Shown here in pieces: positions 30,383 to 41,791 of a stretch of DNA of 64,000 nt. Source of the DNA: an uncultured Verrucomicrobiae bacterium (lineage in GTDB: Bacteria; Verrucomicrobiota; Verrucomicrobiia; Chthoniobacterales; JAATET01); the NCBI GenBank assembly GCA_963719495.1, contig CAVRCI010000007.1, forward strand, positions 64,001 to 128,000, in the 5' to 3' direction. A program made the translations under genes and the position numbers. How positions within the stretch are numbered: the first letter of the stretch is position 1; the number at the start of each line of letters is the position of its first letter. The notes below the pieces were generated by a model, which was not told the origin of the DNA, did not search any database, and was given only the letters and a program-made list of their open reading frames with translations.

Positions 30383-30868
30383 CAGGGCAATTGCATCTAA
30401 AAGCCGAGAAGGTTCAGGAGATAAGAGTGATCCCAGGCGGCATTCTTCTGTTTGCCTTCGATGCCGCGTTTTTTTGGAGGTATCGAGTTTGAGGACGTTG
30501 AGGGTGATGTGGCGCAAGATGGCGAGGTTTTCGGCGACATAGCCGCGGCGGACGCGGCAGGAGCGCCTCGGCGAAGGCGACGTCCAGAGTCCAATGGAGG
30601 GAGGTCTCCACGGCCCAGTAACCACGCACGGCATGGGCGAACTTTTTGGCGGCGGCAGGTAAACTGCTCAGATAAAAGCGAACCTCGCGAGCGTTCGCAC
30701 CATTGATCTCACGCTGGCTCTCGACCATTCCAAAACTGCGCAACCCTTCCCAGAGATCGGTATCGGCAAACCAGTCGATGGACTCGGTGATCCGATAGCG
30801 ACGAATCTCGATCCGCCCGTGGTCTTTTTCGATGGTCTCGTGGAAGGCATGGGCGGTGTGGGCAAACC
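30383..30868 (-). mobile_element. ISAs1-family transposase 3' remnant, frameshifted
   Basis: EKDHGRIEIR, VRGYWAVETSLHWTLDVAFAE, then other frames ENLAILRHITLN and AAWDHSYL; end GATGCAATTGCCCTG. Confidence 0.88.
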
Positions 30869-31507
30869 CAGCAGTTCTCATTTTGGGGTAGCGGCAGACA
30901 GGGGGGAGATGTGAGAGGGTTGGAGCAAAGGGATGAGCGTGGAGTGGCCGCCGGGATTGATGGGCGGCGGGTGGGGACGGTTACAGGCTGCGCCAGCGCG
31001 GCAGGCTGACGCGCGATTGGCCGCAAAAAATGGGGCTCAGTTTCGAAGCGAGGCGTAGGGGCCGATTTCCAGACCCCGGAGCATGAAGTCCATGAGATGG
31101 TCCCAGCTTTCGAAGTGCAGGTAGGTGGTGAGCGTGCGGATGTGCTCGAAGAACTTGCGCCGAGCGCCCACGGCGGAGCGAACGAGGCGGTAGTTGCCGT
31201 CGGTGAGTTCGAGCAGGGTGTGCAGGCCGTTGCCTTCCTCCAATTCCCCGACCCACTGGGAGTGTCCGGGGCTCACCACGACCGGGGTCAGCGCGCTGTG
31301 GTAATGCGTCGTGCATCCATTGGTGTGCTCGATGCGCGAGCAGTGCGGGCAGTGGATGTTCTCGGACTGGGAGGAAAAATACCAGGTGCCGTCCAAGGCT
31401 ATTTCGTAACATTCGCGCCCCTTCCAGCGCCGCCCTCCAATTCGCCTCCCCTTCGAGTCAGCCGACCGCCCTCTGGCACTTCAACAATACCAAAATGAAA
31501 ACTGCTG
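30869..31507 (-). mobile_element. Internally deleted IS (ISNCY-like DDE) with both TIRs
   Basis: TIRs cagcagttctcattttgg / ccaaaatgaaaactgctg (17/18); fused fragments DGTWYFSS..IHCPHC and FFEHIRTLTTYLHFESWDHLM. Confidence 0.78.
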
Positions 31508-33334: not shown

Positions 33335-33363
33335 TTGACATCCCGCCGGTCCGCCCCTACCCT
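33335..33363 (+). promoter_or_regulatory. Putative sigma70 promoter for the DUF2911-PIG-L-symporter-bsh run
   Basis: TTGACA-N17-TACCCT, 19 bp before ATG 33383. Confidence 0.6.
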
Positions 33364-33382
33364 CACCGCAACCAAGACCGAT

Positions 33383-34237
33383 ATGAAAAAATCCCTCCTC
33401 ATCCTCGCCACCGCCGTCCTCGCTGTTTCCACCTCCCTGCAAGCCGAGGTCAAGACCGCTCAGCCCAGCCCCTACTCCGAACTCGATCAAGTCGTCGGCG
33501 TCACCAATTTCACCGTCCAGTATTCGCGCCCCGGCGTGAAGGACCGCACGATCTACGGCGACCTCGTCCCCTACGGCGAAATCTGGCGCACCGGCGCAAA
33601 CGCGACGACCAAGCTCAAATTCGACACCGAAGTCACCTTCGGCGACAAGGCCGTTCCCGCCGGCGAATACGTCCTGTTCACGATCCCCGGCGAGGACGAA
33701 TGGACCGTCGTCCTCTACGGCGACACCGGGATCGCCAACGCCGGCCTCTACGACGAATCCAAGGACGTCGCCCGCGTCACCGTGAAGCCCATCGCGCTCG
33801 ACCAGTCCGTCGAGACCTTCACGATTGGCTTCGACGCCCTCCGCGACGACTCCGCGACGCTCTACCTCGACTGGGCCGACGTCCGCGTCCCCGTGCCGAT
33901 CAAGCTCGACACCAAAGGCCTGTCCGCCGCCGGGATCGAAAGCGCCATGACCGATCAGGATTCTTGGACCGCCCGTGACTACGCCAACGCCGCGGAGTTT
34001 TATTCGGAGAACGACGTGGATCTCGATCAGGCCGCCACTTGGATGGAAAAGGCCGTCGCGATGAATCCCGACGCCTTTTGGTGGCAGCACGGCTACGCCC
34101 AAATCCTCGCCAAGCAGGGTAAAACCAAAGCAGCCAAAGCCGCCGCCGAGAAGTCCATCGCGACAGCCGAAGCTTCCGAGGGCGGTGACTTCGGTTACGT
34201 CCAGCGGAACGAGGACCTTCTCGCCAAGCTGAAGTAA
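33383..34237 (+). CDS. DUF2911 family secreted protein with TPR-like tail
   Basis: QPSP, YSRPGVKDRTIYGDLVPYGEIWRTGAN, GEYVLFTIP. Confidence 0.88.
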   Translation: MKKSLLILATAVLAVSTSLQAEVKTAQPSPYSELDQVVGVTNFTVQYSRPGVKDRTIYGDLVPYGEIWRTGANATTKLKFDTEVTFGDKAVPAGEYVLFTIPGEDEWTVVLYGDTGIANAGLYDESKDVARVTVKPIALDQSVETFTIGFDALRDDSATLYLDWADVRVPVPIKLDTKGLSAAGIESAMTDQDSWTARDYANAAEFYSENDVDLDQAATWMEKAVAMNPDAFWWQHGYAQILAKQGKTKAAKAAAEKSIATAEASEGGDFGYVQRNEDLLAKLK

Positions 34238-34277
34238 CCGCGCCGTCCTGCCGTCGGAACGAGTTCGTTCAAATTCC

Positions 34278-36737
34278 ATGCGTGCGTTCGCCTCGGCGAT
34301 TTTGCTGTCGATGCTCACGCCTTCCCTGGCTACCGCCCTCGAACCCTGGCCGAGCGGTCGGCTCGAGTTGGAACTCGAGAAGCTCCGCGTCCTCGGCAGC
34401 GTTCTCTACGTCGCCGCCCACCCGGACGACGAGAATACCACCCTCATCGCCTACCTCGCGAACGAGGCGAAAGTCCGCACGACCTACCTCTCCCTCACCC
34501 GCGGCGATGGCGGCCAGAATCTCGTCGGCGCCGACCTCGGCGAGAAGCTCGGTCTCATCCGGACGCAGGAACTCCTCGCCGCGCGGGAAATCGACGGCGG
34601 GCAGCAAATCTTCGGGCGCGCCATCGACTTCGGCTATTCGAAGACCTCCGCCGAATCACTGGAGATCTGGGGGAAAACCGAGGCGCTCGCCGATGTCGTC
34701 TGGGCGATTCGCTCGACCCGGCCCGACGTGATCATCACGCGCTTCTCGCTCCTCGAAGGCTTCACCCACGGCCACCACACCGCCTCCGCCCTCCTCGCCA
34801 GGGAAGCCTTCACCGCCGCCGCCGATCCCAAATCCTTCCCCGAGCAACTCGCGTTCGTCGAGCCTTGGACCGCCAAACGCCTCCTCTGGAACACCTCGTC
34901 CTGGTTTTACAAACGCCGCGAGATCGAATTCGACCCCACCGGCCTCCTCCGAGTCGACGTCGGCGGCTACAACCCACTCCTCGGCGAATCCTACCCGGAA
35001 ATCGCCGCCCGCAGCCGCAGCGCCCACCGCTCCCAAGGCTTCGGCACCACCGCCGAGCTCGGCGAGTCCTTCGAATACTTCACCCCGCTCGCGGGCGACG
35101 CCACCACCGACGCCCTCCTCGCCGGCGTCGACACGACGTGGACCCGCGTCGCCGCTTCCGCCCCGGTCGCCGCCGCGATCGATCGAGCCATCGCCGCCTA
35201 CTTGCCCGCCGATCCGTCCCGCGCCATCCCCGACCTCATCGCCGCCCACCGGGCCCTGACCGCTCTCCCCGACCAATTCTGGCGCACCGAGAAACTTCGC
35301 GACCTCGAGCGCGTCATCGCCGCCTGCCTCGGCCTCGACCTCGAAAGCCTCGCCACCACCCCCTCCGCCGTCGCGGGCACCGAAGTCTCCGTCACCCTCC
35401 GCGCCGTCCAGCGTTCGCCTTTCGACGTGAGCATCGCGTTCGATTTTGCCGATCCAGTTTTCCTCCCCTCGAACCAACTCGTCGAAACCACCCGCACCGT
35501 CAGCGTCCCGGCATCACCCGCCACGACTCAGCCCTACTGGCTCACGGAGCCTGCCGGACGCGGAAGCTTCACCGTTACCGACCAGCAACTCATCGGTCGC
35601 CCGGCAAATCCGCCCACCCTCCCGCTCACCGCGACCGTCACCGTCGACGGAACGCCATTCACCCACACCCTCGCGACCACCCACAACTTCACCGATCCCA
35701 TCCGCGGCGAGGTGAAAGAGCCGTTCATCGTCACCCCGCCCGCGATGATCAAAATCGGAGAAAATACCGAGATTTTCGGCACCGCCGAGCCCCGTCCAAT
35801 TTCGGCCCGCATCCTCGCCCGCTCCGCCATCACCGGCGGCCAGCTCCGCTTCGTCACCACCGACGGCTGGAAGATCGAGCCCGCCACCTTCGACTTCGAC
35901 GCCCAGCCCGGCGACGAGATCCCAATCACCGCCACCCTCACCCCACCGCCCTCACCGAGCCAATCCACCCTCACCGCGGAACTTGTGATCGACGGCCAGA
36001 CCACCAACCGCGGCTACGAGCGCATCGACCCCGGCCACATCCCGGCTCAAACCCTCTTCCCCATCGCCCAGGCCAAACTCGTCGCCCTCGACGTGAAACT
36101 CGCCGCCACCCGCGTCGGCACCATTCCCGGCGCGGGCGACGAGATCCCCGAAGCTCTCCGCCGCATGGGAGCCACCGTCGACACCCTCGGCGAATCTGAC
36201 CTCACCCCCGCCAACCTCGCCCGCTACGACGCCGTCGTCCTCGGCATCCGCGCCGTCAACACCAACGACCGCATCACGTTCCACCTCCCCGCCCTCTTCG
36301 ACTACGCCGCCAACGGGGGCGTCGTCATTTCCCAATACAACACCAGCCAAGGCCTCCAGACCGAGGCCTTCACCCCCGCCCCACTCACCCTCTCCCGCGA
36401 CCGCGTCACCGACGAGACCGCCCCAGTCGAAATCCTCGCACCCGACCACCCGGCAATGACGTTTCCCAACGCCATCACCGCCACCGATTTCGAAGGCTGG
36501 GTGCAGGAGCGCGGCCTCTACTTCGCGTCGAAGTGGGACCCCGCCTTCACCCCCATCCTCGCCATCGCCGACCCCGACGAACCCGCCTCTCAAGGCAGCC
36601 TCCTCATCGAGCGCCACGGCGAAGGATGGTTCGTCTACACCGGCCTCTCGTTCTTCCGCCAACTCCCCGCCGGAGTCCCCGGAGCCTACCGCCTCTTCGC
36701 CAACCTGGTCTCCCTGGGCCACTCCAACGATGAATGA
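34278..36737 (+). CDS. Large secreted PIG-L/LmbE-family deacetylase with Ig-like and GATase-like C-terminal domains
   Basis: Signal peptide, AAHPDDE, TRGDGGQN, HGHH, HRSQGFG, WVQERGLYF, FRQLPAGVPGAYRLFAN. Confidence 0.9.
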   Translation: MRAFASAILLSMLTPSLATALEPWPSGRLELELEKLRVLGSVLYVAAHPDDENTTLIAYLANEAKVRTTYLSLTRGDGGQNLVGADLGEKLGLIRTQELLAAREIDGGQQIFGRAIDFGYSKTSAESLEIWGKTEALADVVWAIRSTRPDVIITRFSLLEGFTHGHHTASALLAREAFTAAADPKSFPEQLAFVEPWTAKRLLWNTSSWFYKRREIEFDPTGLLRVDVGGYNPLLGESYPEIAARSRSAHRSQGFGTTAELGESFEYFTPLAGDATTDALLAGVDTTWTRVAASAPVAAAIDRAIAAYLPADPSRAIPDLIAAHRALTALPDQFWRTEKLRDLERVIAACLGLDLESLATTPSAVAGTEVSVTLRAVQRSPFDVSIAFDFADPVFLPSNQLVETTRTVSVPASPATTQPYWLTEPAGRGSFTVTDQQLIGRPANPPTLPLTATVTVDGTPFTHTLATTHNFTDPIRGEVKEPFIVTPPAMIKIGENTEIFGTAEPRPISARILARSAITGGQLRFVTTDGWKIEPATFDFDAQPGDEIPITATLTPPPSPSQSTLTAELVIDGQTTNRGYERIDPGHIPAQTLFPIAQAKLVALDVKLAATRVGTIPGAGDEIPEALRRMGATVDTLGESDLTPANLARYDAVVLGIRAVNTNDRITFHLPALFDYAANGGVVISQYNTSQGLQTEAFTPAPLTLSRDRVTDETAPVEILAPDHPAMTFPNAITATDFEGWVQERGLYFASKWDPAFTPILAIADPDEPASQGSLLIERHGEGWFVYTGLSFFRQLPAGVPGAYRLFANLVSLGHSNDE

Positions 36738-36831
36738 GAAAGCCAGCTGGCGCGCCATCTACGCCACCGTCCTCATCTGGCTGGCAGCCCAGATCGCCCT
36801 GATGACCTGGTTCACCAGAATCCACCAGTGA
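36730..36831 (+). CDS. 33-aa single-TM protein upstream of symporter
   Basis: Own translation MNEKASWRAIYATVLIWLAAQIALMTWFTRIHQ; overlaps PIG-L stop. Confidence 0.7.
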   Translation: MNEKASWRAIYATVLIWLAAQIALMTWFTRIHQ

Positions 36832-36881
36832 CGCCAAACCCGACCCGGCAAATCGAGCAAAGCGAGAGAGCCGCCCGCATT

Positions 36882-36947
36882 TCAAGGAGCGGCGATTTGC
36901 AATCGCCGAACCAACCCAATCCGGCCACCGCCGGACACTTTCCCCCC
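36882..36947 (+). repeat. GGAG-type REP with double hairpin, copy 1
   Basis: tcaaggagcggcgatttgcaatcgccg...ccggccaccgccggacactt; similar at 41362 and 11037. Confidence 0.8.
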
Positions 36948-36949
36948 GC

Positions 36950-38620
36950 ATGACCCCCGCCGACTGGACAGTCCTCCTGGTCACAGTAATCGGCATCGTC
37001 GCCTACGGCCTCCACACCGCCCGCCGCGACCACACCTCCAGCGACTACCTCCGCGGAGGCAACGACCTCAAATGGGGCACCATCGGCCTCTCCGTGATGG
37101 CCACCCAGGCCTCCGCCATCACCTTCCTCTCCACCCCCGGCCAGGGCTACACGCAGGGCCTCGGCTTCGTCCAAAACTACCTCGGCCTCCCCATCGCACT
37201 CATCGTCATCGCCGCCGTCTTCGTCCCGATCTACTACCGGCTCAAAGTCACCACCGCCTACGAATTCCTCGGCCAGCGCTTCGACCAGAAAACCCGCCTC
37301 CTCGGCGCCGGCCTCTTCCTCCTCCAACGCGGACTCGCCGCCGGGATCACCATCTACGCCCCCGCCATCATCGTCTCCAGCATCCTCCACTGGCCGCTCG
37401 GCCCCACCATCTTCTTCACCGGCTTCCTCGTCATCCTCTACACCGTCACCGGCGGCACCCGCACCGTCAGCCTCACCCAGCGCACCCAGATGCTCGTCAT
37501 TCTCCTCGGCATGACCATCGCCTTCGGCTACGTCGTCGCCGGCCTCCCCGCCGACGTCTCGTTCGACGACGCCCTCTACCTCGCCGGCATCAACGACCGC
37601 CTCCAGGCCATCAGCTTCTCCGTCGACCCCGGCGAACGCTACACCATCTGGACCGGCCTCATCGGCGGCACCTTTCTCGCGCTCTCGTATTTCGGCACCG
37701 ACCAATCCCAGGTCCAACGCTACCTCGCCGGCAGCTCCGCCACGTCCAGCCGCCTCGGCCTCATGTTCAACGCCGTCCTCAAGATCCCGATGCAATTCGC
37801 GATCCTGCTCCTCGGCGTCCTCCTCTTCGTCTTCTACCTCTTCCAACCCCCACCCATCTTCTTCAACGAAGCCGCCGTCGCCCAGGTCGCCGAATCCGCG
37901 CCCGCCACCCTCGCCCCGATCGAATCCCGTTTCAAAGCCGCCGCCACCGCCCGCGAAACCGCCGTCCGCACCGCCCTCGCCACCCGCACCCCCGCCACCG
38001 AAGCCGCGATCCACCGCCTCACCGCCGAAATGGACACCGAGCGAGCCGCCTTCCAATCCGCCCTCCTCACCGCCAATCCCGCCGCCGACACCGAGGACTC
38101 CGACTACGTCTTCCTCGGCTTCGTCCTCGCCTACCTCCCCTCCGGTCTCGTCGGCCTTCTCGTCGCCGTCATCTTCCTCGCCGCCATGTCCTCGACCGCG
38201 TCCGAACTCAACGCCCTCGCCTCGACCACCGTCAACGACGGCTACCGCACCCTCGTCCGCCCCGACGCCACCGACACCCACTACGTCTGGATCGCCCGCC
38301 TCCTCACCCTCGCCTGGGGAGCCATCGCCGTGAGCTTCGCCATGACCCTCACCCTCTTCGACAACCTCATCGAAGCCGTCAACATCATCGGCTCCCTCTT
38401 CTACGGCGCGATCCTCGGCCTCTTCCTTATCGCCTTCTTCATCAAACGCGTCGGCGGCACCGCCGCCTTCATCGCCGGCGTCACCGCCGAACTCACCGTC
38501 CTTGCCCTCTACTTCTCCCCCGTCGAGATCGGCTACCTCTGGTTCAACCTCATCGGCTGCGCCCTCACCATCGTCACCGCCCTCGTCCTCCAACCCCTCC
38601 TCGAGCGCCAAACCCGATGA
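36950..38620 (+). CDS. Sodium:solute symporter
   Basis: SVMATQASAITFLSTPGQGY, YEFLGQRF, GTDQSQVQRYL, AAMSS; about 13 TM. Confidence 0.93.
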   Translation: MTPADWTVLLVTVIGIVAYGLHTARRDHTSSDYLRGGNDLKWGTIGLSVMATQASAITFLSTPGQGYTQGLGFVQNYLGLPIALIVIAAVFVPIYYRLKVTTAYEFLGQRFDQKTRLLGAGLFLLQRGLAAGITIYAPAIIVSSILHWPLGPTIFFTGFLVILYTVTGGTRTVSLTQRTQMLVILLGMTIAFGYVVAGLPADVSFDDALYLAGINDRLQAISFSVDPGERYTIWTGLIGGTFLALSYFGTDQSQVQRYLAGSSATSSRLGLMFNAVLKIPMQFAILLLGVLLFVFYLFQPPPIFFNEAAVAQVAESAPATLAPIESRFKAAATARETAVRTALATRTPATEAAIHRLTAEMDTERAAFQSALLTANPAADTEDSDYVFLGFVLAYLPSGLVGLLVAVIFLAAMSSTASELNALASTTVNDGYRTLVRPDATDTHYVWIARLLTLAWGAIAVSFAMTLTLFDNLIEAVNIIGSLFYGAILGLFLIAFFIKRVGGTAAFIAGVTAELTVLALYFSPVEIGYLWFNLIGCALTIVTALVLQPLLERQTR

Positions 38621-39384
38621 CCCCCATCATCTGCTTCGGCCAACAACCCTGCGGCTTCCTGCCCCGCCGTTTCCTCTTCGCAAAAATCCAAACCGCCCGC
38701 CGTCTCCAAGCCGACCTCGGCGACGCCCGCATCGTCCTCTTCTACCACGACAGCGACCACGACCCCCGCGAAACCCAAACCATCCTCATCGAGGCAAAAA
38801 CCGGCGACGAACAACGCCTCAACTTCACCTTCGCGAACAAGACCCAGAAAAAATACTCCCCCCTCTACGCCAAACGCATCCTCCCCGACTGGCAACCCAC
38901 CACCGCCCGCCAACTCCCCAAATACCTCCGCCCCGCCCACGTCGCCGCCTTCGAGTCCATCGAAGCCACCAACCCCGCCGACTTCTGCCTCGCCATGTAT
39001 CGCGCCCTCGGCCTCCTCGACGGCATCGAACTCGCCCGCTCCAGCGACCCCGCCTTCCGCACCGCCGCCTGCGACATCGACGACTACTTCGTCGACGTCC
39101 CCCACGAAGGCGAAACCGTCCGCGCCCGCCGCAAACCCGACGACCGCCTCCGCCTCCACAAAGGTGGCCAAGCCTACGTCGACCTCCCTCCCCAATCCTG
39201 GGAACGCCACCAGATCAGCCCCGCCCGCGACACCCGCCTCCCGTGGATGCAATCCGTCATCCACTGCACGCACTACGTCGCCGGAGCCGGCGAAATGGAC
39301 TACCTCGACCAAACGCAGGCGCCCGAAATCGAATTCGTTCGCCGCGACGACATAGCCAACGCCAGCATCGCCTACCTGCCATGA
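38617..39384 (+). CDS. Short BshC-like protein, 255 aa
   Basis: Internal ATG of track ORF 37072..39384; FGQQP..K..FYHDSDHDPRE and YVAGAGEMDY; ATGA overlaps at both ends. Confidence 0.7.
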   Translation: MTPIICFGQQPCGFLPRRFLFAKIQTARRLQADLGDARIVLFYHDSDHDPRETQTILIEAKTGDEQRLNFTFANKTQKKYSPLYAKRILPDWQPTTARQLPKYLRPAHVAAFESIEATNPADFCLAMYRALGLLDGIELARSSDPAFRTAACDIDDYFVDVPHEGETVRARRKPDDRLRLHKGGQAYVDLPPQSWERHQISPARDTRLPWMQSVIHCTHYVAGAGEMDYLDQTQAPEIEFVRRDDIANASIAYLP

Positions 39385-40079
39385 AAATTCTCGCCCTCGG
39401 CGCCCACCCCGACGACCTCGAGTTCGGCCTCGGCGGAGTCCTCCTCACCGAGCGCGACGCCGGCGCCGACATCACACTCGCCATCACCTCCCGCGGCGAA
39501 TCCAGCAGCCACGGCACCCCAGCCGAACGCGAAGCCGAAGCCCGCGCCGCCGCCAAGCTCCTCGGCGCCGACCTCCACGTCCTCGACTTCGGCGGCGACG
39601 GCTACCAAACCGCCAGCCCGGCGAACGCCACCGCCATCGCCCGCCTCATTCGCGAAGTCCGACCGACCCTCGTCTTCGCCCCCACTCCCCACCCGAACCA
39701 ACACCCCGACCACGCCGCCGTCGGCCAGGCCACCCGCGACGCCTGCCGCCTCGCCCGCTACGCCGGCCTCGAACCCCTCCGCGACCTCCCACCCCACACC
39801 ATAGATTCCCTCTGGTTCTACGCCATCACCCCACCCCTCGATCCCCACCCCGCTCCCACCCTCCTCGTCGACGTCTCCTCCGTCCTCGACCGCTGGCGTC
39901 AACTCATGGCCTGCCACGAATCCCAACTCACCCACCGCAACTACCTCGACCTCCAACTCACCCAAGCCCACCACCTCGGCCTCCAAGCCAACTGCCAAGC
40001 CGCCATCCCCCTCTGGCCCAACGACCCACCGATCGTAAAGAACCTGTCCTCGTTAACGAGAGCAACTCGCGCCTTCTGA
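39381..40079 (+). CDS. bshB: PIG-L family deacetylase, BshB1-like
   Basis: Internal ATG of track ORF 38502..40079; GAHPDDLE, SRGE, HPDH, VDVS, HESQ; next to bshA. Confidence 0.82.
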   Translation: MKILALGAHPDDLEFGLGGVLLTERDAGADITLAITSRGESSSHGTPAEREAEARAAAKLLGADLHVLDFGGDGYQTASPANATAIARLIREVRPTLVFAPTPHPNQHPDHAAVGQATRDACRLARYAGLEPLRDLPPHTIDSLWFYAITPPLDPHPAPTLLVDVSSVLDRWRQLMACHESQLTHRNYLDLQLTQAHHLGLQANCQAAIPLWPNDPPIVKNLSSLTRATRAF

Positions 40080-40161
40080 CCCGGTGGAGCGGGCGCTCCG
40101 CGCACGCTGGCGACCGACTCCGTGGTCCATTGAACCGCAACTCCCAAGCAACGGCGCTTCA

Positions 40162-40217
40162 GACCTTCCGACCTTCCGACCTTCCGACCTTCCGACCTTC
40201 CGACCTTCCGACCTTTC
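40162..40217 (+). repeat. Tandem octamer (GACCTTCC)x6 plus one variant
   Basis: Read directly. Confidence 0.95.
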
Positions 40218-40229
40218 GACCCGCATCCC

Positions 40230-41432
40230 ATGACCCCGCTCCGCATCGGCATCGTCTGCTACCCCACCATCGGTGGCAGCGGCATCGTCGCCACCGAGCT
40301 CGGTCTCCTCTTCGCCGCCGCCGGCCACGAGGTCCATTTCATCAGCTACGAACGACCCATCCGACTCGGCGAGGACACCCCGAACCTCCGCTTCCACCCG
40401 GTCATCGTGAACGAGTATTCCCTCTTCAAATACCCCGATTACACCCTCCCGCTCTCCGTCCGCATCGCCGAAGTCTGCGCCACCCACCGCCTCGACATCC
40501 TCCACGTCCACTACGCCGTCCCCCACGCCACCGCCGCCCTCCTCGCCCTCTCCATGCTCGGCGACGCCCCCCGCCCCGCCCTCATCACCACCCTCCACGG
40601 CACCGACACCAACCTCCTCGGCCAAGACCCCCACTACCGCCCCATCATCCGCCACTCCATCGAGCATTCCGACGGAGTCACCACCGTCTCCGCCAGTCTC
40701 CGCCAACAAACCCTCGAAACCTTCGCCCTCGACCGCCCCATCGAAGTCATCCCCAACTTCTTCGCCCCAACCCCACCCACCCGCTCCCGGGAGGACGTCC
40801 GCCGCGAACTCGACATCGCCGACGACGAAATCCTCCTCCTCCACCTCTCCAACCTCCGCCCCGGCAAACGCGTCACCGACCTCCTCGAAGCCATCGCCCG
40901 CGCAAAAAGCCGCGCCCGCCTCCGCCTCGTCATCCTCGCCGGAGACGACTTCACACCCTACGAGCCCGAAGTCGCCCGCCGCGGCCTCACCGCCCAAGTC
41001 ACCGTCCGCGAAGGCGTCCAAGCCATCGACGACTACCTCCACGCCTGCGACGTCGGCGTCTACGCGTCCGAGCAGGAAAGCTTCGGCCTCAGCATCCTCG
41101 AGACCCTCGCCCACGGCCACCCCGTCGTCGCCACGAACGTCGGCGGCATCCCCGAAGTCGTCCGAGACGGCCACACCGGCCTCCTCGTCCCACCCCACGA
41201 TCCCACCGCCCTAGCGAACGCCATCGACAACCTCGTCGACGACCCAAGTTTCCGCGAAACCCTCGGCACCACCGCCCGCACCGACGCCGCCAACCGCTTC
41301 GACCCCGCCACCATCCGCGACCGCTACCTCGACCACTACCGGACCTTCACCAAAGCGCCCATCAAGGAGCGACGGCTTCCAGCCGTCCACCAACCCAATC
41401 CGGCGACAGCCGGACACTTCCCCTCCCCCTAA
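40230..41432 (+). CDS. bshA: N-acetyl-alpha-D-glucosaminyl L-malate synthase (GT4)
   Basis: IGIVCYPTIGGSGIVATELG, LFKYPDYTL, LHVHYAVPHA, TTLHGTD, ESFGLSILE. Confidence 0.92.
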   Translation: MTPLRIGIVCYPTIGGSGIVATELGLLFAAAGHEVHFISYERPIRLGEDTPNLRFHPVIVNEYSLFKYPDYTLPLSVRIAEVCATHRLDILHVHYAVPHATAALLALSMLGDAPRPALITTLHGTDTNLLGQDPHYRPIIRHSIEHSDGVTTVSASLRQQTLETFALDRPIEVIPNFFAPTPPTRSREDVRRELDIADDEILLLHLSNLRPGKRVTDLLEAIARAKSRARLRLVILAGDDFTPYEPEVARRGLTAQVTVREGVQAIDDYLHACDVGVYASEQESFGLSILETLAHGHPVVATNVGGIPEVVRDGHTGLLVPPHDPTALANAIDNLVDDPSFRETLGTTARTDAANRFDPATIRDRYLDHYRTFTKAPIKERRLPAVHQPNPATAGHFPSP

Positions 41433-41791
41433 CTCAACTTCGAAAACATCCCCCGGTTCCGAGCCACGAAATCATACCCCGCGTCCGCCAACCGCCCAAA
41501 CCCCGGCACCCGCGCGTAAGCCCAGTGCCCCAGCCGCCCCAGCCAATTCCCCACCCCCAGCGCCCGAAACACCGCGTCCGCCCGCTGCGTCCGCGTCCCA
41601 TCGACCTCGACGTATTGGACCGAAGCGTCGAAGTCCCCGTCCGGAATTTCCGGAAACCGTCCCCGCCCCTCGCTCGAAGGAATGTATTCCACCCCATCCC
41701 CCGTCATCACCCGCCACCGGCCCACCCACCGTTTACAGAACGAGCAATCCCCATCGTAGACCATCACTGGCCGTTCGAGCCCACCCTTCAT
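41429..41791 (-). CDS. DCC1/DUF393 thiol-disulfide oxidoreductase family
   Basis: YDGDCSFC, YDFVARNR. Confidence 0.85.
   Translation of the reverse strand: MKGGLERPVMVYDGDCSFCKRWVGRWRVMTGDGVEYIPSSEGRGRFPEIPDGDFDASVQYVEVDGTRTQRADAVFRALGVGNWLGRLGHWAYARVPGFGRLADAGYDFVARNRGMFSKLS

Follow-up and report, generated by a model that had tools for sequence, protein, structure and literature searches.

A conserved operon for bacillithiol-type metabolism with a minimal BshC homologue and a probable envelope branch in Verrucomicrobiota

Gene content and order of the locus

The stretch of DNA analysed here (the window) is 64,000 nucleotides (nt) from an uncultured Verrucomicrobiae bacterium (GenBank assembly GCA_963719495.1, contig CAVRCI010000007.1, positions 64,001 to 128,000). 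It contains an operon in which genes for bacillithiol synthesis (bshA, a bshB-like gene and a half-size bshC, here mini-bshC) follow genes for a DUF2911 protein, a giant PIG-L hydrolase, a micropeptide and a symporter. The system is real and conserved. It probably represents a form of bacillithiol metabolism that uses a minimal BshC and has an envelope branch not described before. All coordinates are positions within the window, with open reading frames (ORFs) read from the sequence and from a program-made ORF list (Table 1). All eight ORFs are present and open, seven on the + strand and one convergent on the - strand, so the seven co-directional genes described in an initial annotation of this DNA stand. 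However, that annotation called the genes mostly overlapping, and overlaps occur at just three of six junctions (PIG-L/micropeptide, 8 nt; symporter/mini-bshC, 4 nt; mini-bshC/bshB, 4 nt); the remaining three are gaps of 40, 118 and 150 nt. Its one good sigma70 promoter also proved too generous a description. A sigma70 consensus scan found no promoters, and the candidate seen by eye (TTGACA at 33335-33340, a 17 nt spacer, TACCCT at 33358-33363) has a perfect -35 element and a -10 element matching at three of six positions, making it plausible but not strong.

The order of the operon genes is identical in 12 of 14 relatives and is thus not due to chance; the other two hold PIG-L elsewhere in the genome. 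The convergent CxxC protein, which the initial annotation had counted as part of the system, is present as described (PF04134, CSFC motif) but does not belong to it. Its gene was found in none of the 14 relatives' loci and in one of 80 PIG-L loci (the top 80 from a set of at least 591 giant PIG-L loci in GTDB, used for all neighbourhood counts of this gene), that one being the closest relative, and the DCC oxidoreductase was rejected as a member on these counts.

The operon holds two copies of a 30-nt element (36911-36940 and 41390-41419), which has no other copy in the window. The first copy fills the gap between the micropeptide and symporter genes, which overlap in the closest relative, and the second sits inside a C-terminal extension of bshA. 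A tandem 8-mer repeat of about seven copies (40157-40220) lies inside the 150-nt gap between bshB and bshA; unlike here, these two genes are close together in relatives.

Table 1. Features of the operon, as positions within the window, and loci of the distant PIG-L clusters.
Feature	Position	Strand	Comment
Candidate sigma70-type promoter, TTGACA-17-TACCCT	33335..33363	+	by eye; weak -10
DUF2911 protein with C-terminal TPR-like helices, putatively exported	33383..34237	+	PF11138, E 1.3e-50
Giant LmbE/PIG-L metallo-amidohydrolase, 819 amino acids (aa)	34278..36737	+	PF02585
Single-transmembrane micropeptide, 33 aa, hydrophobic	36730..36831	+	place kept in many relatives
Sodium:solute symporter (SSF)	36950..38620	+	PF00474; TIGR00813 above cut-off
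Mini-BshC, 255 aa	38617..39384	+	structure match to 4WBD
BshB1-like N-acetylglucosamine (GlcNAc)-malate deacetylase, cytoplasmic, 232 aa	39381..40079	+	TIGR04001 best match, below cut-off
BshA, GlcNAc-malate synthase (GT4)	40230..41432	+	TIGR03999 above cut-off
DCC1-like CxxC protein with CSFC, converges on bshA	41429..41791	-	PF04134
Distant PIG-L clusters	L304:858-10352; L305:753-10313; L308:58-10268; L306:1-11376; L240; L241		

A BshC homologue that retains only the catalytic core

By sequence, the 255-aa product of the fifth gene is an orphan. It matched no Pfam or NCBIfam model, including TIGR03998, PF10079 and PF24850, and searches of PDB by sequence, with the single protein or a 62-sequence profile, returned nothing useful. 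Structural comparison points to BshC. The top Foldseek match of the predicted model (predicted local distance difference test, pLDDT, 96) is Bacillus subtilis BshC (PDB 4WBD; E 1.7e-9, TMq 0.62), and 4WBD is also first among 48,161 chains (Z score 20.2, root-mean-square deviation 2.6, 238/255 residues, 14% identity (VIA)), with an aligned range of 83-512 on its chain; the next structural neighbour is class I lysyl-tRNA synthetase (LysRS; Z 14.2). In the ESM Atlas, the protein lies at 0.92 from the BshC-domain cluster. What is modelled is the Rossmann core, similar to class I aminoacyl-tRNA synthetases, with the first ~80 residues and the coiled coil missing; there is no long helix and no match to PF24850, which canonical BshC controls do have.

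The core motifs are retained. The N-terminal GQQ, K23 and DSDHD..E align with canonical BshC in hhalign, the C-terminal R207-L..Q212, HY..G.GE..YL and R243 match it by eye, and the core motifs (GxQ, K, DHD..E, RP..Q, Y..G..E..Y, R) are invariant in 62 homologues and five canonical BshC sequences. Moreover, 17 of the 62 aligned homologues weakly match PF10079, the BshC Rossmann domain (best E 0.002). The name mini-bshC given at first annotation is borne out by the structural match, the motifs and these weak family hits, and by model and motif the orphan is a shortened BshC homologue in which the catalytic core remains and would add cysteine to glucosamine (GlcN)-malate. Relatives of the orphan made up 6807 of 7780 candidate proteins. 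A family-model search found no canonical bshC in the host genome (98.6% complete), and a search of plasmids for mini-BshC gave no match. Longer forms were also sought: none of the 12 matches (P0128-P0139) was a canonical BshC, and most carried Pfam domains encoded by neighbouring genes (symporter, PIG-L or GT4), which are read as sporadic fusions or read-through errors.

In 80 metagenome loci, the upstream neighbour of mini-bshC was the symporter in 61 (eight had no room upstream), and the downstream neighbour was bshB in 57 and bshA in 13. The mini-bshC operon was also seen in records that bear the titles Pseudomonadota, Candidatus Acidoferrum and Methylomirabilota (L128, L113 and L090); either the entire cassette may have been transferred or the records may be mis-binned.

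BshA and the probable cytoplasmic deacetylase

On its TIGR03999 score (387.2 bits; cut-off 273.7), the GT4 glycosyltransferase is BshA. The small PIG-L carries AHPDD and HPDH motifs and finds its best family in TIGR04001 (BshB1), at 131.5 bits and under the cut-off of 182.5; it is likely to deacetylate GlcNAc-malate as BshB does. A bshB-type gene sits between mini-bshC and bshA in all 14 relatives. The host genome had no match to glutathione synthetase (gshB). With BshA above cut-off and mini-BshC matching 4WBD, the bacillithiol-type synthesis proposed in the initial annotation is supported, and its passage through mini-BshC seems to us very probable.

A giant PIG-L hydrolase, a symporter and their partners

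The 819-aa hydrolase scores 52.9 bits against PF02585 (cut-off 28.2). Its best NCBIfam matches are Mca and MshB, all far from assignment (Mca 40.5 vs 277 bits; BshB2 21.7 vs 195). The predicted model (pLDDT 88.7) has an MshB-like domain (~37-287), a middle part made of helices and a beta-sandwich, and a C-terminal domain of class I GATase/ThuA-like type (~609-817), and domain comparisons gave Z scores of 20.9 with MshB (4EWL), 18.5 with BshB (6ULL), 15.8 with STM3548 and ~19 with chitobiose deacetylases. The metal-site residues H48, D50 and D51 (AHPDDE), H164 and H167 are invariant in 40 homologues. By eye, the protein and its relatives have a hydrophobic N-terminus with an AxA-type end, and it is presumably exported. 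Thus, for the two PIG-L enzymes first annotated, both family assignments hold, and export of the larger one is a by-eye reading of its signal-like N-terminus.

The symporter exceeds the cut-offs of TIGR00813 (215.2 vs 184 bits) and PF00474 (127.3 vs 22.8 bits). In PDB it matched NIS, SMCT1, SMVT and 5NV9, which we take to be SiaT, with E values of 1e-43 to 1e-37, and sodium/glucose cotransporters at 1e-24 or weaker; by these scores it falls nearest to the anion-carrying NIS/SMCT/SMVT/SiaT side of the SSF family. The micropeptide is likely to be an accessory subunit of the symporter, judging by its kept position and W..xY pattern, with W7, Y11 and L24 invariant in nine aligned homologues. Near the giant PIG-L gene, the symporter was found in 67/80 loci and DUF2911 in 42/80 (either orientation), and the DUF2911 gene is present in the loci of all 14 relatives. 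The DUF2911 protein is a conserved partner of the PIG-L/symporter module; its search in the Atlas gave no match outside its own family, a single paper was found to list it, and neither gave a functional lead.

Distribution of the module relative to bshA

Five samples of genomes were compared. Among 251 Verrucomicrobiota genomes, each at least 90% complete, mini-bshC was found in 15 (a count that leaves out G247, with 21.6 bits and two stops), giant PIG-L in 16 and bshA in 17, fully nested. The giant PIG-L was therefore carried by 16/17 bshA genomes and by 0/234 others. The two bshA genomes without mini-bshC carry a canonical bshC and BshB1. In the family of the verrucomicrobial genome G252 (51 genomes), the same 27 carry mini-bshC, giant PIG-L and bshA, and the other 24 carry none of them.

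A similar pattern was seen in Myxococcota (131 genomes, the phylum of a Myxococcaceae record). Giant PIG-L was present in 34 genomes, all bshA-positive, and in 0/96 bshA-negative ones, bshA itself being found in 35 (33 above cut-off). Several gene orders occur, and in almost all cases (33/34) the distance to bshA is within ~5 kb; five loci that were checked hold a canonical bshC and an adjacent symporter in tandem or divergent layouts. For Bacteroidota (201 genomes, the phylum of the Pedobacter record G256), giant PIG-L was found in 77 genomes (56 close and 21 distant homologues), all with bshA, and in none of the nine without; bshA was above cut-off in 192, more than expected. The 21 genomes have solely the distant form, and five of their loci (L242-L246) contain neither a symporter nor a lyase motif. 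Within 251 genomes of Pseudomonadota (the phylum of a Pseudomonadota record), a close homologue was found in the centre genome alone, with the full operon, and in none of the other 250; two genomes have a distant homologue and lack both bshA and bshC.

The linkage between module and bsh genes thus recurs with two kinds of bshC and in several gene orders. A PIG-L/symporter pair common in genomes lacking bshA would have spoken against the initial annotation, and for the symporter-linked subfamily this is not so in the genomes sampled here (0/234, 0/24, 0/96 and 0/9).

Loss of bshB in carriers of the module

A closer look at the G252 family found a BshB-type gene in nine of the 27 carriers (117-138 bits; next best 55). 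It is missing from the other 18, which keep bshA, bshC, PIG-L and the symporter, and in G252 the sole PIG-L gene is the exported one. Mini-bshC lies ~25 nt from bshA in 19/27 carriers. In Myxococcota, BshB1 was missing in 4 of 11 genomes tested (10 hand-picked from the 34, plus the centre genome). Since many carriers have lost bshB, the module may serve synthesis as well as salvage.

An internal start codon that would yield a cytoplasmic PIG-L does not, in general, account for the bshB-less genomes: a Met after the PIG-L signal region is found in 9/9 bshB-less and 7/8 bshB-positive family members that were aligned, and both of the bshB-less Myxococcota in the alignment lack it.

A distant PIG-L subfamily in bshA-negative bacteria

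Distant relatives of the giant PIG-L share 27-38% identity with it over the matched parts and have no symporter neighbour. The two that were aligned show no signal-like N-terminus. Among plasmids, 29 records matched, of which five were opened, one being without annotation. On those of Thalassospira, Aminobacter and Parasedimentitalea, a ROK regulator and PIG-L are divergent from a sugar ATP-binding cassette (ABC) importer, a gene called argH and a sugar kinase. One Bacillus plasmid has an ABC importer, a creatininase-family gene, 'argH' and ROK. The kinase is of PfkB type and the regulator is nearest to Mlc and NagC. The lyase was spotted with what we take to be the fumarate-lyase signature, which occurs in 5/306 loci (three on these plasmids and two in the bshA-negative Pseudomonadota genomes) and is absent from the five distant Bacteroidota loci. 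It scores slightly above cut-off for TIGR00838 (312 vs 279.5 bits) and could be a true ArgH.

Release of fumarate from substituted succinates is the established chemistry of the fumarate-lyase superfamily, and GlcN-malate belongs to that class of compounds. With a fumarate-lyase-type gene, a sugar kinase and an ABC importer adjoining PIG-L, the distant cluster may point to a sugar-malate substrate. It is a candidate for breakdown of the bacillithiol core through import, deacylation, fumarate release and sugar phosphorylation. These clusters, coming from genomes independent of the operon, would point to the same substrate as the operon does.

Proposed function and alternatives

Taken together, these data make it reasonably probable, in our judgement, that the operon directs the synthesis of bacillithiol, or of a closely related derivative, and adds an extracytoplasmic branch of bacillithiol metabolism. 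BshA would join UDP-GlcNAc to malate, BshB would remove the acetyl group and mini-BshC would attach cysteine to the GlcN-malate. The exported PIG-L would cut the amide on the glucosamine nitrogen of periplasmic GlcNAc-malate, bacillithiol, its disulfide or S-conjugates, and the symporter, with the micropeptide, would return GlcN-malate to mini-BshC. We lean, with similarly guarded confidence, towards periplasmic amide hydrolysis of GlcNAc-malate, bacillithiol or conjugates by the PIG-L, followed by Na+-coupled uptake of GlcN-malate. Kept with bsh genes across several phyla, the PIG-L and symporter probably recover the sugar-malate core from outside the cytoplasm. As the module would yield the same product as BshB, bshB would become dispensable and its repeated loss would be explained; that the module in fact substitutes for BshB where bshB was lost is a tentative suggestion, which we hold to be somewhat doubtful.

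Several observations weigh against this proposal. The PIG-L domain resembles MshB, LnmX, chitobiose deacetylases and BshB to much the same degree (Z 18-21), so the substrate cannot be read from its fold. An exporter of GlcNAc-malate or bacillithiol was not identified, and the parts seen of a 2018 review treat bacillithiol export or import as not established (PMC5790435). In Bacteroidota the module does not adjoin bsh genes, co-occurrence has little power with bshA in 192/201 genomes, and 115/192 bshA-positive genomes are without the module, so it is not required for bacillithiol. The genomes within samples are related, and the counts overstate independence. The hhalign comparison of mini-BshC with five canonical BshC sequences is weak (probability 4.7) and covers the N-terminal motif alone. 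Lastly, split genes occur in 4/18 bshB-less genomes (G719, G749, G740 and G755) vs 0/9 with bshB, one bshB-less Myxococcota genome has a stop in bshC (G855) and another has gshB, and the 18 genomes may be one clade with one loss.

These points lend themselves to other explanations. PIG-L, symporter and DUF2911 could form a separate unit that scavenges N-acyl-amino sugars (e.g. GlcNAc, chitin or peptidoglycan fragments) and supplies the glucosamine pool; its position near bsh genes would then reflect shared regulation or co-transfer. Chitobiose deacetylases and BshB fit the PIG-L domain equally well, the module in Bacteroidota lies away from bsh genes and is absent from most bshA-positive genomes of that phylum (115/192), and the distant subfamily lives in bshA-negative genomes. 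However, the module is joined to bsh genes in several orders and with two kinds of bshC, its PIG-L is found in 0/234, 0/24 and 0/96 bshA-negative genomes, the symporter is closer to anion than to hexose carriers, and a fumarate-lyase-type gene accompanies the distant subfamily, all of which leaves such a scavenger improbable. A product other than bacillithiol is a little less probable again: mini-BshC, with 14% identity to 4WBD and two domains lacking, might ligate another amino acid or acceptor to give an analogue, in keeping with a BshB under its cut-off and with class I LysRS as second structural neighbour, but BshA is canonical, the BshC motifs are invariant and, in the genomes sampled, mini-bshC takes the place of canonical bshC on a one-to-one basis.

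Equally slight is the chance that the module is a dedicated biosynthetic step, in which GlcNAc-malate leaves the cell interior and is deacetylated outside, or bacillithiol is made for the periplasm or for envelope proteins, with the DUF2911-TPR protein as partner. The absence of bshB from 18/27 and 4/11 carriers that keep bshA, bshC, PIG-L and symporter would suit this, as would the symporter directly upstream of mini-bshC in 61/80 metagenome loci; bshB is nevertheless kept in 57/80 of these loci and in 14/14 relatives, many bshA genomes are without the module, and an exporter was again not identified. A further alternative, unlikely but the strongest of those considered, concerns solely the replacement of BshB: the bshB-less operons may be decaying, or may use an unrelated cytoplasmic deacetylase. 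Besides the split genes (4/18) and the bshC stop in G855, BshA scores 348-384 bits in bshB-less genomes vs 387-414 bits in those with bshB, consistent with one clade and one loss, and the searches that found bshB absent used PIG-L models. Decay sits less easily with bshA being whole in 17/18 and mini-bshC in 16/18 bshB-less genomes, with the clean removal of bshB (mini-bshC ~25 nt from bshA in 19/27), and with its recurrent loss in Myxococcota, where bshC is canonical and two gene orders are seen.

If periplasmic recovery of GlcN-malate is the function of the module, a wider picture can be drawn, which we offer as speculation that is unlikely to hold in full. Many Gram-negative producers would export bacillithiol or GlcNAc-malate in an undescribed extracellular cycle, with PIG-L and the micropeptide-assisted symporter recovering GlcN-malate and, in some lineages, providing the sole deacetylation step. 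Non-producers would use a cytoplasmic sister enzyme together with an ABC importer, a lyase that releases fumarate and a sugar kinase to feed on the same sugar-malate, and the half-size BshC would be a minimal cysteine ligase making the missing thiol of Verrucomicrobia.

Other features of the window

A cytochrome P450 gene (31802-32959, - strand) is divergent from the operon, and overlapping short ORFs at 30397-31412 (- strand) resemble, by eye, a fragmented transposase. GC skew is strongly negative on the + strand of the window, reaching -0.42 across 37-42 kb, because the coding sequence is very C-rich; the skew in turn produces many spurious repeats in the window.

Comparison with known systems

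As far as the parts seen of Hiras et al. 2018 go, Verrucomicrobia are among the lineages without a documented or predicted small thiol (PMC6282198). This gap may arise because Pfam and NCBIfam models miss mini-BshC. The survey of Hammerstad 2025 used filters for similar length and 80% coverage, and its main text, as far as seen, is silent on Verrucomicrobia (PMC12719100); a half-size BshC would escape filters of this kind. In the titles and abstract openings searched, with subscription journals mostly uncovered, neither a short BshC nor the PIG-L/symporter module was described. In the portions consulted of the 2018 review, the BshC reaction had not been reconstituted, and BshC dimerises via its coiled coil (PMC5790435). 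A BshC without the coiled coil and a hydrolase-symporter pair make the BshC reaction and bacillithiol transport testable, and names of cultured hosts (Coraliomargarita, Opitutaceae, Pedobacter and Myxococcaceae) are found among the homologues. The distant-relative cluster adds a candidate route by which non-producers could break down the sugar-malate core.

The closest known system is the BshA/BshB1/BshC pathway of B. subtilis (TIGR03999, TIGR04001 and TIGR03998; PDB 4WBD). The operon shares with it a BshA above cut-off, a BshB1-like deacetylase and the BshC fold and motifs, and here too the three bsh genes adjoin. It differs in being extended by four envelope genes and in its BshC, which has 255 aa vs ~530-540, goes unseen by TIGR03998 (PF10079 catches homologues weakly) and is without the N-terminal part and the coiled coil, the latter being the presumed dimerisation part according to what was seen of the review (PMC5790435). 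The giant PIG-L shares AHPDDE, the second His motif and an MshB-like fold with MshB, Mca and BshB2/Bca. In contrast to these, it has 819 aa and a signal-like N-terminus, scores far below all their cut-offs, adds beta-sandwich and GATase/ThuA-like domains and is coupled to a symporter; the small cytoplasmic architecture of the Mca/Bca S-conjugate amidases is not shared. For the symporter, NIS, SMCT1, SMVT and 5NV9 are the nearest solved sequence relatives, although it forms a separate uncharacterised subfamily with an upstream micropeptide.

In its logic, the proposed branch would resemble periplasmic glutathione recycling, in which glutathione is exported, cleaved by gamma-glutamyl transpeptidase and re-imported: in both, a thiol would be broken outside the cytoplasm and its pieces imported. 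The enzymes and transporter of the two systems are unrelated. A commentary, in the part seen, draws a parallel between the transpeptidase and conjugate amidases (PMC6336425).

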